Shown: positions 6,499-31,366, numbered from the stretch's first letter. The stretch: DNA of 31,366 nt from Elusimicrobiota bacterium (GCA_027319565.1 DAHVNA010000026.1:1-31366), one strand, 5' to 3'. The notes: generated from the sequence alone by a model not told the origin. Numbers and translations: made by a program.

Positions 6499-6572
6499 GG
6501 TGCGATACCCAAGTGGTCCAAGGGGACGGTCTGCAAAACCGTTATTCGCGGGTTCGAATCCCGCTCGCACCT
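6499..6572 (+). tRNA. tRNA-Cys (GCA)
   Basis: Acceptor stem GGTGCGA/TCGCACC, U discriminator, anticodon arm ACGGT-CTGCAAA-ACCGT, T arm GCGGG-TTCGAAT-CCCGC; CCA not encoded; TATAAT at 6484-6489. Confidence 0.95.
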
Positions 6573-21561: not shown

Positions 21562-21571
21562 GAAAATAGTT

Positions 21572-21945
21572 GGGAGGCGGCCGATACCCCGGATTCTGTT
21601 TCCGGCCCTTGCGAACCGGAGGGAATCATTTTTCTCAAGCGGCTACCGGGCGACTTTCGCTTTCGCGAAAATGCGCAAGCGGCGCGTGTCGCCGTTTATT
21701 GCCTTGCTCCCGGCGGGGTTTGCCTAGCCTTGTCTCTCGCGAGACAAGCGGTGGGCTCTTACCCCACCTTTTCACCCTTACCCGCGAGGCGACAGCCTCG
21801 AAGGCGGTTTGTTTCTGTGGCGCTATCCATCGGCAAAAAGTCGCCTTTTCGCCGTCTTGCCTTTCGGCAAGCGCCGCGCTTTGTGGAGTCCGGAAGTTCC
21901 TCTCCCGGAAATTAAATCCCGGAAGCGATTCCCGGCCGCCCCCTC
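21572..21945 (-). ncRNA. rnpB: RNase P RNA (bacterial type A-like)
   Basis: P1 GGGGGCGGCCG/CGGCCGCCTCC; GAGGAACTTCCGGACTCC; GCCACAGAAACAAACCGCC; GGTAAGGGTGAAAAGGTGGGGTAAGAGCCCACC; GGCAAACCCC...GAGCAAGGC; ACAGAATCCGGGGTAT. Confidence 0.93.
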
Positions 21946-25712: not shown

Positions 25713-25740
25713 AACTCTTGTAGTGCGGTCAGTGAGACCG

Positions 25741-25810
25741 AAAAGGCAAACCTTTCGAAAGAAAGGGGCGCAAAGCGCGGGGTCCCTTGTGGATTGCCCG
25801 GCTGCCGAAG
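25741..25810 (+). promoter_or_regulatory. Cyclic di-GMP-I (GEMM) riboswitch aptamer
   Basis: GGCAAACCTTTC-GAAA-GAAAGGGGCGCAAAGC...GGCTGCCGAA matches GEMM P2 with GAAA tetraloop, the CGCAAAGC junction and 3' CCGA. Confidence 0.85.
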
Positions 25811-25818
25811 GGATCTGA

Positions 25819-26340
25819 TTGATGGATTATTTTAAATTGTCTTTGACGCGGAGGCGGATCGCGGGCGTTTTGGCGGTCGCTTCCGCTTTTTTATTTCTTT
25901 CTGCGAGAGCTTTTGCCGAAGTTCCCATCGGTCTTGGGGCGCAAGGGGTGAGCGTTAGTTACGCCGTTGCTAACGCCCTTCATCTGGACGTTCGCGACGC
26001 CTTGGGACGGCCGGTTTCTCGCTCCCTTATCCAAAAAGAGCTGAAAATTTCAGAGGCAAGAGCGCGCAGCCGGACTTCTTTTTTCTCTTCTCTTCCCAAG
26101 GCGCGGGCGATTAGTTTTTTTATTGAATGTGTTTGGAAACTCCCCATTTTCTCTTGGGGCGCCTCTCTGTTTGAGGCCAGAGCGCGCGTTTGGGCTCTTC
26201 CCGTTTCCAGAAAGAGGCCCTTGTTGGCGCGGGGGCTCTTGAGATGGATTTCGATTTTTTCAGGCGTATTTTTTGTCTCTTGTCTGATTTCCTTCCATCG
26301 GGAAGTATCCTACCTTAACTTTTCTGTTCTCCGCTGTTGA
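25819..26340 (+). CDS. Hypothetical exported or membrane protein, first gene after the riboswitch
   Basis: Signal-peptide-like RRRIAGVLAVASAFLFLSARAFA, C-terminal hydrophobic segment, ends SVLRC; no family recognised. Confidence 0.5.
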   Translation: MMDYFKLSLTRRRIAGVLAVASAFLFLSARAFAEVPIGLGAQGVSVSYAVANALHLDVRDALGRPVSRSLIQKELKISEARARSRTSFFSSLPKARAISFFIECVWKLPIFSWGASLFEARARVWALPVSRKRPLLARGLLRWISIFSGVFFVSCLISFHREVSYLNFSVLRC

Positions 26341-26459: not shown

Positions 26460-27113
26460 ATGAACAAGAAAGCGGCCAAATTGATGATCCTGGTTTTGGG
26501 CGCGCTTGGGTGTCTGGGTTTTTCCAGGGCCTGGGCTCAAAACACAGCCCCTCAGGGCCAAGCCGAGATTGCGCGCCCTTGGGCAGAGGGTTTTAGCGTC
26601 AGTCAATCCTCGATGTCCCGGCTTTTAGCGGTCAAATCGGTTTTTCAAGGTCCCAATAGAAGGGCGGCGAGCGCTTTAGAGGCGGCCTTTTTCCAAGAAC
26701 CCCGGGCTTCTATCCGGGCCTGGATGGTGCGGGCGGAAAACCATTCCGCGCCGGGCAATATATCGTTTTTAGAAACCGCGCTTAAAGACCCCAATGTTTT
26801 TGTCCGCGAAGCCGCTATTGTCGCCTTGGGAGAGTCCAAAAAGCCTCAGGCAGTTAAGGATTTGGCTCCGCTTTTGGCCACCGAGCCCGAGCCCGGCGCG
26901 CGGATAACCATCGCTTTTTGGCTGGGTCAATTGGGGGGAAGTTCTTCGGTTGTGGCGCTTTCCCAGGCCTTGGCTCAAGATAAAGATGCCAATGTTCGCC
27001 TTCAGGCGGCGCAGTCGCTTAAGGAGATTGGGAGTAGCTCGGCTTTGAGCGCTTTAAAGCAGGCGGCCAATGACCCTAATCCCCGGGTAAGGGGGCTAGC
27101 GCAAGGAAAGTAA
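26460..27113 (+). CDS. Exported HEAT/PBS-lyase repeat protein
   Basis: AAGGAG SD; signal peptide (AWA); LKDPNVFVREAAIVALG, DKDANVRLQAAQSLKEIG, NDPNPRVR. Confidence 0.85.
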   Translation: MNKKAAKLMILVLGALGCLGFSRAWAQNTAPQGQAEIARPWAEGFSVSQSSMSRLLAVKSVFQGPNRRAASALEAAFFQEPRASIRAWMVRAENHSAPGNISFLETALKDPNVFVREAAIVALGESKKPQAVKDLAPLLATEPEPGARITIAFWLGQLGGSSSVVALSQALAQDKDANVRLQAAQSLKEIGSSSALSALKQAANDPNPRVRGLAQGK

Positions 27114-27309
27114 CAGAAAGAAAATGAAAGCAACGGAAAGAAACGGAAAGTTACAGAAAGTAACGGAAGGTAACGGAAAGTTTGGATTGCTTTCCTTGGC
27201 TTTCCGTTACTTGCCGTTGCCTTCCGTTTCTGTCCGTGACTTGCCGTGTCTTTCCGCTGCTTGCCGTGTCTTTCCGTTGCCTTCCGTTGCCTTCTGTTTC
27301 CTTCTTTTC
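27101..27309. repeat. Inverted pair of 10-bp tandem repeat arrays (8 x NAACGGAAAG, then about 12 x CTTTCCGTTN)
   Basis: Units read directly at 27101-27180 and 27190-27309; TAACGGAAAG (27171) and CTTTCCGTTA (27200) are exact reverse complements. Confidence 0.92.
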
Positions 27310-30300
27310 TCCGTCCTCGCCTTTTTCCCCGGCAAAGCGGGGGCGCAGCAGTTGATTTCCAATTTCACCACGGGAGATGTTTCATGGCCGGGCAGCCGGC
27401 ACGTTTTTTATGATCACGGAATCGGGCAAGTTTTTGTCTTTTATTCCCAGCCCTACGGCATCGCCTACCGCTCTTATAATTTCAGTTCCTGGTCGAATGA
27501 ATCTGTTGTTATCTCAACAGGCCAAGCCCTGGCTCTTGACCCCACCACCACTGGTCCTGGCGGTAGCGCGCCCACGGACACAAACACGATGTATTCCAGC
27601 GTCTATTATGACCAAGCCTCAAGCTCGGTCTACGTTATCGCCTCGGATCCCAACGCTCTCCTTGAGAATAAATCAGGCCCAGGATGCACCAATGGATATG
27701 CGAACAGCGTCTTTCTCATTCACGGAACTATTAATTCGAACGGGTCTATTTCCTGGGGGAGCCTTGTTCAAAAAGCTCCCTCGGCTCAGGTGGCCAACTC
27801 CAATTCAGGAGGAGGTGAATGCGCCCCCGGGAGAAGCGTCGGAATTACCTACATGAAGGGCGCTCCGTCAGGCCTTATTTCCTTTGTCTGCGATGCCCAG
27901 GCGGTCAATGGCTGCGGAGCCGGAAACCCGACGTATAAAACTTCGATTATTGGCATGTATGGATTAAGCACCGCGTTTTCCGGCGGAACCGCTTGGTCTG
28001 CCGACCACAATGATGGCAATAGAGCCAGCAACACGTCTCCCGCCGAACTTAATTACGGAGAAATCGTTCCAGTCAATGACGTCTCCGGAGGCGGAAGTTA
28101 TGACTTCATGGTGTCTCAGGAATTTCAATATGGATCAGCTGTTATCAACTCTTATCAATACACGGGCACTTATAACTCTAATGAGTTGACCACGGGTGGA
28201 ATAGCTTCTTTTAACGCTTTAGTGACCGACTCCATGGCGCCCCAGCCGGATAATGTTTCTTCCCTGGCCGCTCTTGGCTATATAGATAGTTTGGGTGAGC
28301 TAAGCTATTACGAGCGCACGGGCTTTCAAACATGGGGGACTAAAGCCGTGATAGATGGATGCGGGGCTTCAATTACCACTCCCTGCGGAAACCCCAGCAC
28401 GGTTTACGTTGTCAATTCGCCCGTGGTTGGAGGCGATGCGGCGTACACGATTTATCTTTCTAGTTTTGGCGCGGTCAATTATGCCTACGGCGCTATCGCC
28501 AACGGACCATTCACTATTTCTTCTAACTGGCAGCCGGCGGCTGCGGAAACGGTGCCTCAAGCTCCGGCATATATCGTCGCGCCAGACCCAATTCCAGTGG
28601 TCATGGACAATACCTCGGGCGGGCTTGATTTTGAGTTTATTCCCACGGATGCGCTTGGACCGCCGACGATCACTTCTATTTCTTCATCGCCGACCACCGC
28701 TCCATTTTCAACGAATGCTTACGATCTTGTCCTGACCGGAACGAATTTCATGCAGGAGAGTAGCATCCTTCAATCCCAGGTCGGGATTCTTCTTGGAGGA
28801 GGCGCTCAGGGCAATATCACGGTGACTTCCACGACCTATGTCAGTTCGACTCAAATTAGGGCCTCCATCGTTATCAACAGCAATGGCGGCAGCCCCTATG
28901 ATATCCAGGTCAGCAATCCCGATGGCAGAAGCTCTATTGATTCCAAGGCTCTTTCTTTGCCTCTCCCCGTGGTCACAAGCGTGTCCGAGGATTTTGCCAA
29001 TCATCATTTGAGCAGTCCAAAATATGATCTTGTCATCAGCGGCTCCGGATTTGAGGATTGGGCAAGCCCCGGTCCCGTTTCGGTGACTCTTCTTAAAGGA
29101 GGGCTCACCCAAACGGAAATCAGCGTCACTTCTACTACTTATACGAGTCAGAATCAGTTGCGCGCCTCTATCGTTTTAAACCCGCCCATTTCAGGCGGCC
29201 CTTATGACGTAAAAGTGACAAATTCTGACGGGCAAACCTATACCTTGAGCGCGGCTTATTCCATTCCCGCGCCGACATTGACGGGAATTGTGATCAATGG
29301 TGAAGCGGTTCCGTCGGGAGGAATTGAGCCCAATATTCCGGATTGCGCTGGGAATAGTTGCCCTTCGACGCCATCTGGACGGCCGACAAGACAACTAGTG
29401 GTCTCGGGAGCCAATTTTGAAGACTGGACAAGCCCGATTGCCTCGGTCACGATCTCGGGCGTTTTTGTCGATTCGGTCACTTATTCCAATTCAGGACTTT
29501 TTACCGCCAATATCAACGTGACGACAGCGGCGGCATCGGGGCTTGAGAGCGTCACGGTCATCAACGCCGACGGCCAAGCCTCAAGCACGATCGCTTCGAC
29601 TTTTACCGTGACGGTTCCCACGGCGGCGGTGAGTTATCCGACCACTGTTTCCGGGACGATTTACAATCCCAACACCGCGATTTATTATTCATCGGGAGTT
29701 CCCAATATTTTGGGAACGGCGTCTTATTCTCCGGCTTCGGGGCAAACCTTCCTCTTGACGAGTCAAGCCGAAATCGAGCAATTGAGCGGAACCAACGCCG
29801 GTTATTTCTGGAACGGGGCCAATTTCCAGGCGGTTTCGGCTTTTACCGCTCCGGCTTCCGAAACGGAATGGCAGCCGGCCAGCGCGGCCACCCCGTGGAA
29901 TTACAGCGGTTGGACTAACAACAACACCGATCAAGCCGATGGAACTTCTTATAACATCGCTTGGCGGGGACTGACGGCGGATGAGGGCTGGAGCTATCCC
30001 ATTTCAAGCTTTACCTTGACGATCGATAAATCCCCGCCGGTGTCGAGCGTTTTGACGCCGGTCGGAGGCACTGTCGTCAATTCCCAGCCGGATATTCAAA
30101 TTCAATCGGTGGACGCGGGCGTTGGCGTGTCTCAGATGTGGATCTTGGCCGAAGACACCAATTCGTTTTCCTGGACCGGGTCTTCCTGGAGCGCGATTCC
30201 CGGAGCGATGTTTATTTCGACCAACGGCGCGGGCGGAGGATCGCCGAATATGGTTTTCTCTCCTCCGGAGGAAAATCCGGGGATTTTGACCTTTAACTCG

Positions 30301-31366
30301 GCTACGACCATTCAAGTTCCGGCTTGGAAAAATGGAGCCGAGTACAGCATTCAGGCCGCGGGACAAGACGCCTTGGGTCATTACCAAGCCGCGTCCGCGA
30401 TCAACTTTTTTTATGATGTCAATAACCCCACGGCGACGATTATCTCTCCCGTCATTAGCGCCAACTCCGCCAGTCCCACCTGGCTTAACTCTCTCACGAA
30501 TATTTCAGGCTCTATTTCGGATTTAGACATCATCAGTGGAAACACGATTTTCTCGGTCAATAACACCGTCGCCATTCAAATTAAAGATTTAACCAACGGG
30601 AATTTCTTTAACGGCTCAAGCTCTTTAATTGAAGGCTCGAGCCAAACCTTTATCTCGACCTCGGCCGTTCCCTCTAATGAAAACGGGGCCGACCCCTTCA
30701 TGTATTTTTATTATACGACCACCAACGGCTCTTGGACTGACGCTATTTCCGGAGTTCCCTTTCAAAACGGGCATGATTATCGCATCGCGATGTATGCCTG
30801 TAATCCCACCGAGCCGATTACTTCCCCCGCCAATCCCGGCTGCGACGGCGGAGACGGAACCACCGCTTCCGATTCAGACGGTTCCGCGACTTCCGCGCCC
30901 CCGGCTTTTATCGGCTATTTTAATTTCAATAATAATCCGCCGACTTCCGCGGTCACTTTCCCGACGACTTTAGCCACCCCTAACGCCTTTGGCGACAATG
31001 CCACTAAAACCGCCTCGTCTTTGTCGATGCTTTGGGGAACGGCTTCCGCCGCGACCGACGTTTCCGGGATATTCGCCGAAGAATATACTCTTCAAGACAC
31101 GATCACGGGCGATTATTGGTGTAATCCCGCTTCCACTGCGCCCAATAGCTCTTGTTATGGAGCCGGTTCGCCTGGATTTATTTCTCTGACCGTTGGCCAG
31201 ACCGCGCCCTGGATTGTCGCTCAGACAACGACGACGCCGGCTTGGGCGGGTTGGGAAATCAACAATATTCCGTTTCTTAACGGCCATTCTTTTCAGCTGA
31301 TTACCAAGGCGGTCGACAACGCCGGAAACGTTCAAGTCGTCTATTCCACGACCAATTTTATCTATG
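27124..31366 (+). CDS. Large secreted or surface protein with IPT/TIG and Ig-like repeats (at least 1414 aa, 3'-truncated by window)
   Basis: Frame +1 from ATG 27124 had no stop in the segments I translated and no terminated ORF is listed for it; signal ends AGA-QQ; three IPT/TIG-like repeats at about 28660-29610 (YDLVLTGTNF...YDIQVSNPDG); Ig-like linkers DKSPPVS, YDVNNPTA, KAVDNAGN; S/T/G/N-rich. Confidence 0.88.
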   Translation, partial: MKATERNGKLQKVTEGNGKFGLLSLAFRYLPLPSVSVRDLPCLSAACRVFPLPSVAFCFLLFSVLAFFPGKAGAQQLISNFTTGDVSWPGSRHVFYDHGIGQVFVFYSQPYGIAYRSYNFSSWSNESVVISTGQALALDPTTTGPGGSAPTDTNTMYSSVYYDQASSSVYVIASDPNALLENKSGPGCTNGYANSVFLIHGTINSNGSISWGSLVQKAPSAQVANSNSGGGECAPGRSVGITYMKGAPSGLISFVCDAQAVNGCGAGNPTYKTSIIGMYGLSTAFSGGTAWSADHNDGNRASNTSPAELNYGEIVPVNDVSGGGSYDFMVSQEFQYGSAVINSYQYTGTYNSNELTTGGIASFNALVTDSMAPQPDNVSSLAALGYIDSLGELSYYERTGFQTWGTKAVIDGCGASITTPCGNPSTVYVVNSPVVGGDAAYTIYLSSFGAVNYAYGAIANGPFTISSNWQPAAAETVPQAPAYIVAPDPIPVVMDNTSGGLDFEFIPTDALGPPTITSISSSPTTAPFSTNAYDLVLTGTNFMQESSILQSQVGILLGGGAQGNITVTSTTYVSSTQIRASIVINSNGGSPYDIQVSNPDGRSSIDSKALSLPLPVVTSVSEDFANHHLSSPKYDLVISGSGFEDWASPGPVSVTLLKGGLTQTEISVTSTTYTSQNQLRASIVLNPPISGGPYDVKVTNSDGQTYTLSAAYSIPAPTLTGIVINGEAVPSGGIEPNIPDCAGNSCPSTPSGRPTRQLVVSGANFEDWTSPIASVTISGVFVDSVTYSNSGLFTANINVTTAAASGLESVTVINADGQASSTIASTFTVTVPTAAVSYPTTVSGTIYNPNTAIYYSSGVPNILGTASYSPASGQTFLLTSQAEIEQLSGTNAGYFWNGANFQAVSAFTAPASETEWQPASAATPWNYSGWTNNNTDQADGTSYNIAWRGLTADEGWSYPISSFTLTIDKSPPVSSVLTPVGGTVVNSQPDIQIQSVDAGVGVSQMWILAEDTNSFSWTGSSWSAIPGAMFISTNGAGGGSPNMVFSPPEENPGILTFNSATTIQVPAWKNGAEYSIQAAGQDALGHYQAASAINFFYDVNNPTATIISPVISANSASPTWLNSLTNISGSISDLDIISGNTIFSVNNTVAIQIKDLTNGNFFNGSSSLIEGSSQTFISTSAVPSNENGADPFMYFYYTTTNGSWTDAISGVPFQNGHDYRIAMYACNPTEPITSPANPGCDGGDGTTASDSDGSATSAPPAFIGYFNFNNNPPTSAVTFPTTLATPNAFGDNATKTASSLSMLWGTASAATDVSGIFAEEYTLQDTITGDYWCNPASTAPNSSCYGAGSPGFISLTVGQTAPWIVAQTTTTPAWAGWEINNIPFLNGHSFQLITKAVDNAGNVQVVYSTTNFIY

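Follow-up and report, generated by a model that had tools for sequence, protein, structure and literature searches.

A dispersed inverted repeat array that encodes most of a predicted signal peptide and likely brackets backward toxin-antitoxin cassettes in a coupled Elusimicrobiota operon

The locus described here raises the question of what an inverted array of 10-bp repeats does at the junction of two genes, where it holds the stop codon of one and the other's start codon. The window, that is, the whole stretch of 31,366 nucleotides that was analysed, is the complete contig C30 of an Elusimicrobiota bacterium genome (G000; 2.03 Mb, 92% complete). On its plus strand, a c-di-GMP-I-GGC riboswitch aptamer (25736..25810; Rfam RF03167, 63.3 bits, above the gathering score), which is also present in the relatives G001, G004 and G005, is followed by a 173-aa ORF of no family (25819..26340), the first gene after the riboswitch, whose homologues precede the HEAT gene in relatives. 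Then come a HEAT-repeat gene of 217 aa (26460..27113; Pfam HEAT_2, E 3.8e-23), which ends inside the array, with its last codons and its stop in units 1-2, and the beginning of a very large exported protein; the riboswitch and the three genes look like one adhesin operon. The array itself, on the same strand, consists of a purine arm of eight 10-bp units (27101..27180), a 9-nt spacer that forms the hairpin loop (27181..27189) and has the same letters in a second copy on contig C96, and a pyrimidine arm of twelve reverse-complement units (27190..27309) that has no in-frame stop. Direct reading of the sequence bore out the unit, spacer and reverse-unit positions and the 10-residue period of the original prediction, as well as its placement, in the assembled window, of the HEAT stop (27111-27113) in unit 2 and of the large protein's ATG (27124) in unit 3.

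The arms had been predicted to encode a signal peptide, and most of that claim stands. As assembled, the predicted signal peptide has 74 aa (27124..27345, plus strand), with the cleavage site placed where homology to the mature proteins of relatives begins. The mature part (27346..31365, plus strand) is truncated where the contig ends and contains a choice-of-anchor Z repeat (NCBIfam NF058597, 46.1 bits, cut-off 30). The ORF from ATG 27124 is stop-free for at least 1414 codons and runs off the contig, and homologues of the large protein were found in 17 of 61 genomes, in open frames of up to 14108 aa. The purine arm encodes the charged n-region (by composition, 5 K/R and 2 D/E among residues 1-20), as claimed, and the last units of the pyrimidine arm make most of the hydrophobic core. 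The hydrophobic stretch is shorter than had been proposed: 11-residue Kyte-Doolittle means reach 2.0-2.7 only for residues ~51-66, compared with 0.1-1.1 for residues 16-50. Composition and alignment with relatives thus give the features of a Sec-type leader, namely a charged n-region, a hydrophobic core and small residues at -3/-1. The in-frame starts before the cleavage site are ATG 27124 and TTGs at codons 22-52, and initiation at the latter could produce a shorter leader. A real start downstream of the array would have undone the claim, and the stretch from the array end to the predicted cleavage site contains no in-frame start, which leaves the arm as the source of the hydrophobic core.

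Alignment of orthologues, which the original prediction had proposed, showed how the array came to be part of the leader. It was absent from all 10 homologue leaders read, which are mostly ~20-45 aa long (that of G004, with other palindromes, is ~70 aa). The last dozen residues of the window leader align with these array-free leaders, indicating that the array replaced the n- and h-regions. Such a replacement may be tolerated since the leader is cut off. The remaining leader end (27289..27345, plus strand), comprising the end of the h-region, the c-region and the predicted AGA cleavage site, is single-copy, as judged from the depth and exit of the adjoining array core and from the alignment.

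The array belongs to a dispersed family, as had been suspected. A profile scan of the genome found 48 arms, compared with 0 in a triplet shuffle, and a cluster scan found 23 clusters, compared with 1 in a shuffle. After two split elements were merged and C42 and C66 were added, the site count was 22 chromosomal sites plus contig C96; a weak arm at C33:4897 was excluded and C66 was scored as non-leader. In the genome scan, all 19 two-armed clusters had the purine arm first, and the array therefore reads as a charged-then-hydrophobic peptide on either strand. Sixteen of the 22 sites cover a gene start or first codons that by eye encode Sec, lipoprotein or prepilin leaders. This supports the predicted preference for signal-peptide regions when compared with the 438 of 1410 genes that have a crude N-terminal hydrophobic stretch (p 7e-5), a comparison that is partly circular, as the leaders were called by eye and the arm itself is hydrophobic. 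Among 41 genomes, 9 contain a two-unit pattern, 4 of 5 congeners among them, and the pattern is strongest in this genus. Gains are lineage-specific: of two adjacent pilin leaders, the first carries the array in G000 and the second in G005. An exact triple-unit pattern was found in 10 scattered stretches in GTDB, and no cassette was seen beside the 9 of these that were read.

Sequence variation within the arms suggests some selection against arginine in the leaders. Across the 16 leaders, C>T changes that turn an in-frame Arg into Cys affected 10 of 37 units, compared with 5 of 72 in other frames (p 0.007), where units within one array are not independent. The losses were not concentrated near the cleavage site (Arg kept in 4 of 5 units near it and 22 of 32 far from it), and the excess of ATG in coding purine arms was not significant (8/105 vs 3/109, p 0.13). 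Avoidance of in-frame stops (0/17 vs 14/45) is circular and was not counted as evidence.

Contig depth and contig branching suggest that the window is not the full arrangement at this site. Of 111 contigs, C96 (813 bp) alone has a 77-nt terminal repeat, and it is circular as assembled. It carries a RelE/YafQ-like toxin and a partner (weak matches, under cut-off) together with an array that is a 93% copy of the window array; other arrays are 68-76% identical over their full length. The core common to both (27156..27288, assigned to neither strand; 131/133 letters identical) is likely present in ~3 tandem copies at the site. In contigs of four sequencing runs (X1-X4), it has 2.56, 3.43, 2.56 and 2.21 times single-copy depth, and each of two cassettes has 0.77-1.13 times the depth of the big gene, contig depth not being a true copy number and all four runs coming from one study. 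The second cassette forms a bubble with the first, is 12 nt shorter, and its start resembles HicB of G005. Among the exits of the core that were listed, each led either to a cassette end or to window position 27289 onward, and no contig among those listed from the source runs spanned the whole stretch. Given the raised depth of the core and its listed exits, which lead only to the big gene and two cassettes, the window is likely a collapsed direct repeat from which the assembly dropped two backward toxin-antitoxin cassettes. Regarding the original concern that the array might be an assembly artefact, the letters are real, but in most cells the apparent run from HEAT stop through ATG 27124 to big protein probably reflects a collapsed repeat. 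If linear, the cassettes would sit between HEAT and the big gene; otherwise, they would be circles from the same site. The contig graph is also compatible with such free excised circles or with a mix of alleles. Two more runs, X5 and X6, cover the stretch in part only; in X6 there is a 96% relative whose loose end resembles the G005 leader over 30 letters only. No RNA data set was listed among those that hold the stretch.

Translation of C96 in the operon direction offered an indication of how such cassettes could be accommodated. The leader frame is open across both backward genes and stops in the cassette promoter (random antisense frames stay open for 166 codons at a frequency of 0.005). 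The frame restarts 1 nt later and, after 15 codons, meets a stop inside an array unit; 15 nt beyond lies the ATG of the next leader. A Sigma70-type promoter lies 6-7 nt ahead of the cargo ATG in C96, G001, G004 and G005, and one cassette promoter is common to G000 and G005.

Examination of the same junction in relatives revealed integrated cassettes with a similar design. HEAT was found in 9 of 61 genomes. In the eight others, HEAT and the big gene are connected by a relay of frames in five, directly coupled in two (G014, G047) and not coupled in one (G052), which has no ATG within 20 nt of the HEAT stop. Backward cassettes of 2.5-2.7 kb occupy the junction in G001, G004 and G005 and encode HicB, HicA, ParE, a Phd-like protein and a small protein of no family. 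In G003 the layout proposed for the window's site is directly visible, in the order HEAT, a 100-bp leader copy, a backward HicBA-like pair, the leader and the big gene, and the junction of G049 holds two tRNA modules. Pairs of tRNA and antisense RNA were observed within the cassettes of relatives. In all five relayed genomes (G001, G003, G004, G005, G049), ATG-started frames on the operon strand run unbroken from the HEAT stop to the big gene, over 2531 nt in G001, 2734 nt in G004 and 2689 nt in G005. Of the 28 hand-offs, 21 are at -4, and the longest single frame has 458 codons. Among windows on the opposite strand of ordinary G000 genes, a null that represents neither toxin-antitoxin nor tRNA DNA, such chains were found in 0 of 1500 at 2600 nt and in 26 of 1500 at 500 nt. 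With looser rules the null gave 7 of 1500 (GTG/TTG starts included) and 288 of 1500 (45-nt window), and the five genomes are kin with shared cassette parts and hence not independent.

Elsewhere, relays occur only in some cases, which counts against the explanation given below. Two sites on contig 62 of G003 and one further site in G004 are relayed; two other G003 junctions and two further junctions in L044 showed no relay. Among seven loci in other families where one of the cargoes lies antisense in an operon, two are fully relayed (both in G004), one partially and four not; of the five outside G004, none is fully relayed and one partly. The unbroken chains in the five relatives suggest that coupling likely matters at this junction. 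Relatives are coupled without the array, and coupling at the junction is older than the array. Rho, which is relevant to the mechanism proposed below, scored above cut-off in G000, G001, G004 and G005, and was found in two pieces in G003.

Taken together, we consider it fairly probable that the array, as one member of a dispersed family, supplies most of the predicted signal peptide and likely also serves as a direct repeat bracketing backward toxin-antitoxin cassettes in a coupled operon. Arrays of this family are dispersed with the purine arm first. From contig depth and branch points, the chromosome would read HEAT - array - cassette - array - cassette - array - big gene, which the assembler would have collapsed. 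Unbroken ATG-started frames cross the junction cassettes in five relatives, and the C96 cassette has the same design, in which each copy of the array supplies one stop and one start; the stop beside the start in use likely belongs to a short relay frame and not to HEAT. The otherwise meaningless frames may carry ribosomes across the inserts, in which case Rho would be kept from terminating the transcript and re-initiation would bring ribosomes to the big gene's buried start; only inserts that leave the chain intact would survive. Both mechanisms, relief from Rho-dependent polarity and re-initiation at a buried start, appear in the text available for PMC12548453. If true, this would explain how kilobases of selfish DNA pile up in a tightly coupled operon without silencing it, by way of long 'meaningless' frames open across backward genes and of repeats that by chance encode export signals. 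Such arrays can also hide collapsed cassettes in metagenome assemblies, such that models based on gene neighbours in a contig may be wrong.

Several other explanations were weighed against this one. The original prediction held that the array is also an RNA switch, in which a long, register-sliding hairpin is kept because it holds the big gene silent until a ribosome that terminates at the upstream stop unfolds it. The proposed fold check gave a stable hairpin for 27090-27345 (-121.4 kcal/mol, z -8.34), equalled by none of 200 shuffles, that can slide, with alternative registers lying within 17 kcal/mol (five registers, -68 to -85). In the finished hairpin the start is indeed buried: the computed cost of freeing 15 nt on each side of the ATG is 29-33 kcal/mol, far above 100 control starts (median 8.8, maximum 17.5 kcal/mol), and 15.8 kcal/mol remain when the terminating ribosome is modelled. 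The stop lies 10-15 nt ahead of the ATG in both known copies, and hairpin unfolding is an established coupling mechanism, according to the text available for PMC12548453. However, the start is open (0-3 kcal/mol) until the transcript passes ~27230, some 110 nt beyond the ATG. A G-U bias is absent from the arms on the coding strand (A>G 33/525 vs T>C 36/545; C>T 24/327 vs G>A 20/315; 105 purine and 109 pyrimidine units). No enrichment in coupling was seen at array junctions either, with 7 of 18 ATG-coupled compared with 644 of 1077 others (13 of 18 when GTG/TTG starts are included), and the array leader on C19 has no upstream gene on the same strand. The junction is also coupled in relatives without any array. 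The hairpin is improbable as the reason that the array is kept, and the claim of a switch opened by ribosomes ending on HEAT is unsupported. The array encodes a predicted export signal and is likely a cassette boundary in a relayed junction, and an array-specific switch is unlikely. It could alternatively be a neutral sink for repeats, growing by slippage where this is harmless, with the window as the true majority allele and the cassettes as excised circles or a minority. The circular assembly of C96, symmetric variation of the two arms that points to turnover at the DNA level, and a contig graph that cannot give order are all consistent with this. Both cassettes are nonetheless at single-copy depth in four of four runs, five relatives have cassettes integrated at this very junction, and the relay is far outside its null, making a neutral origin an unlikely explanation of the whole.

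It is conceivable that the array is the recognition or recombination site of a designed mobile element, one based on a four-helix-bundle protein (23S rRNA IVP) that moves cassettes and targets start codons. PF05635 genes are flanked by similar 10-mer arms in G021, G042 and G047, and by 7-mer arms at two further loci; in G003 a cargo gene lies between 64-bp direct repeats of the purine arm; and the cassette promoter common to G000 and G005 also fits such an element. Against this, PF05635 was not found in six genomes of the genus (G000 and five congeners), nor were PF01797 and PF13366 in G000, a genome that is 92% complete; PF00589 gave 7 matches there. Relatives bound the same cassettes with other sequences, either their own leader start or other palindromes, indicating that the array is not required. 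Toxin homologues elsewhere are open on the opposite strand at only 2 of 16 loci, both short partial matches, a pattern that speaks for filtering at the site and against built-in design, and we regard the element as quite improbable. A bolder version of the cassette-boundary reading, which we offer as possible but doubtful, is that the junction acts as a cassette collector without an integrase: modules, either toxin-antitoxin or tRNA/antisense, would be written backward into the adhesin-operon junction, and the junction would be duplicated like CRISPR repeats. The relay and the repeat-made signal peptides would then keep the operon working however many cassettes pile up.

A literature search that took in few subscription papers turned up nothing on the array family, on relay frames that span antisense cassettes or on tRNA/antisense pairs. 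The REP/REPIN and the Rickettsia palindromic elements are palindromic repeats that have invaded coding sequence and been put to use in membrane-targeted proteins. The REP/REPIN systems differ in that no RAYT gene (Y1_Tnp, PF01797) was found in G000, an incomplete genome. PARCELs, a looser parallel, share these properties (PMC2996958, available text). These three groups consist of palindromes of 20-150 bp or domains of 25 residues, unlike the 10-mers found here. The closest published case is that of the MIRUs, dispersed start-codon repeats with their own start and stop that keep coupling, typically at -4 (PMC12548453, available text). The arrays described here also lie at gene starts, at 16 of 22 sites, and coupling through an internal ORF of the MIRU type was found in the C96 copy and at two other sites, the 7 of 18 ATG-coupled array junctions not exceeding background. 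They differ from MIRUs in being inverted arrays of 10-mers that are kept in the protein as a leader, and in that the coupled frames run for hundreds of codons backward through whole cargo genes; neither the MIRU sequence nor a mycobacterial host is involved.

Integron arrays provide a second comparison, as they contain toxin-antitoxin cassettes with promoters, the ORF-11 reading frame in attI1 and short ORFs across attC hairpins (PMC8876359, available text). On this account, tandem cassettes, toxin-antitoxin cargo with its own promoters, hairpin boundaries and ribosome-passing junk ORFs are common to both. However, no integron integrase (TIGR02249) scored over cut-off in the five genomes searched here, the boundaries are direct repeats of 41-190 bp that, by eye, mostly copy the host junction, and the array lies inside a chromosomal adhesin operon. 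As another of the looser parallels, tandem TAACTGA heptamers in Beggiatoaceae lie just upstream of starts and often overlap the upstream stop, and a role in translation has been proposed for them, as yet untested; in the text available they are nearly all direct and intergenic, with no inverted arm and no signal peptide (PMC4679880). The PF05635 cassettes share with the array the inverted tandem arms of short units with the purine arm first, including the similar 10-mer arms in three genomes of the family. They differ in that no PF05635 gene lies between the arms here, where the spacer is 9 nt, and in that here it is likely the entire two-armed array that recurs, as a direct repeat flanking other cargo.

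Cassettes in relatives contained tRNA matches scoring 45.8–67.2 bits (Rfam), at loci L041 7505–9780, L042 7704–10208 and L043 9296–10235 (minus strand), at L055 4350–4554, and in the L136–L143 set, which includes L141 in genome G049. A promoter, short RNA and terminator followed each match. In all 8 of the pairs tested, the longest complementary run of the short RNA, 10–15 nt in length and covering the anticodon arm, was to its own neighboring tRNA, whereas runs against non-partner tRNAs reached only 4–9 nt, except between two copies of one type. The anticodons were GCT, GTC and GAC, and the GCT tRNAs lacked the long variable arm that is usual for tRNA-Ser. The tRNA and short RNA are a candidate RNA-only toxin-antitoxin pair, in which a miscoding tRNA would be countered by an antisense RNA; a literature search found no description of tRNA/antisense pairs of this type.

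In cassette genes of L053 (217–254) and at the cassette starts of L041, L042 and L043, the ATG lies 6–7 nt past the -10 box, and these genes look leaderless. The opposite strand of several of these promoters reads a stop and then an ATG. In G003 (L044, 1996–3423 and 3420–3718), purine-arm direct repeats of 64 bp bracket a cargo gene whose region is open in frame throughout and belongs to the next ORF, and two -4 relay frames run across a second cargo. In G070 (L073) and G092 (L084), a backward cargo gene lies within the N-terminal part of a longer ORF, whose frame is open there. At a TadG/TadE-like junction in G047 (L119) and G042 (L120), a backward four-helix-bundle gene lies between two pyrimidine arms, and no ATG relay was seen starting from the upstream stop at either locus.

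In the window's own genome (G000), three arrays on contig C33 (12235–12670, 21036–21430 and 25504–25957) hold REP-like palindromes inside their loops, one of them in frame within a leader that we take to be PorV-like. Several small contigs of this genome (C13, C2, C91 and other pieces <1 kb) have a GC content of 0.61–0.71, compared to 0.50 genome-wide, and are possibly bin contamination. In G005 C11, G025 C38, G037 C115 and G003 C145, the frames that encode homologues of the big protein stay open for 10272–14108 codons. Other RNAs of the window are an RNase P RNA (21569–21943, minus strand), a tRNA-Cys (6499–6572, plus strand) and, ahead of the operon, a c-di-GMP-I-GGC riboswitch (25736–25810, plus strand) that is kept in G001, G004 and G005.
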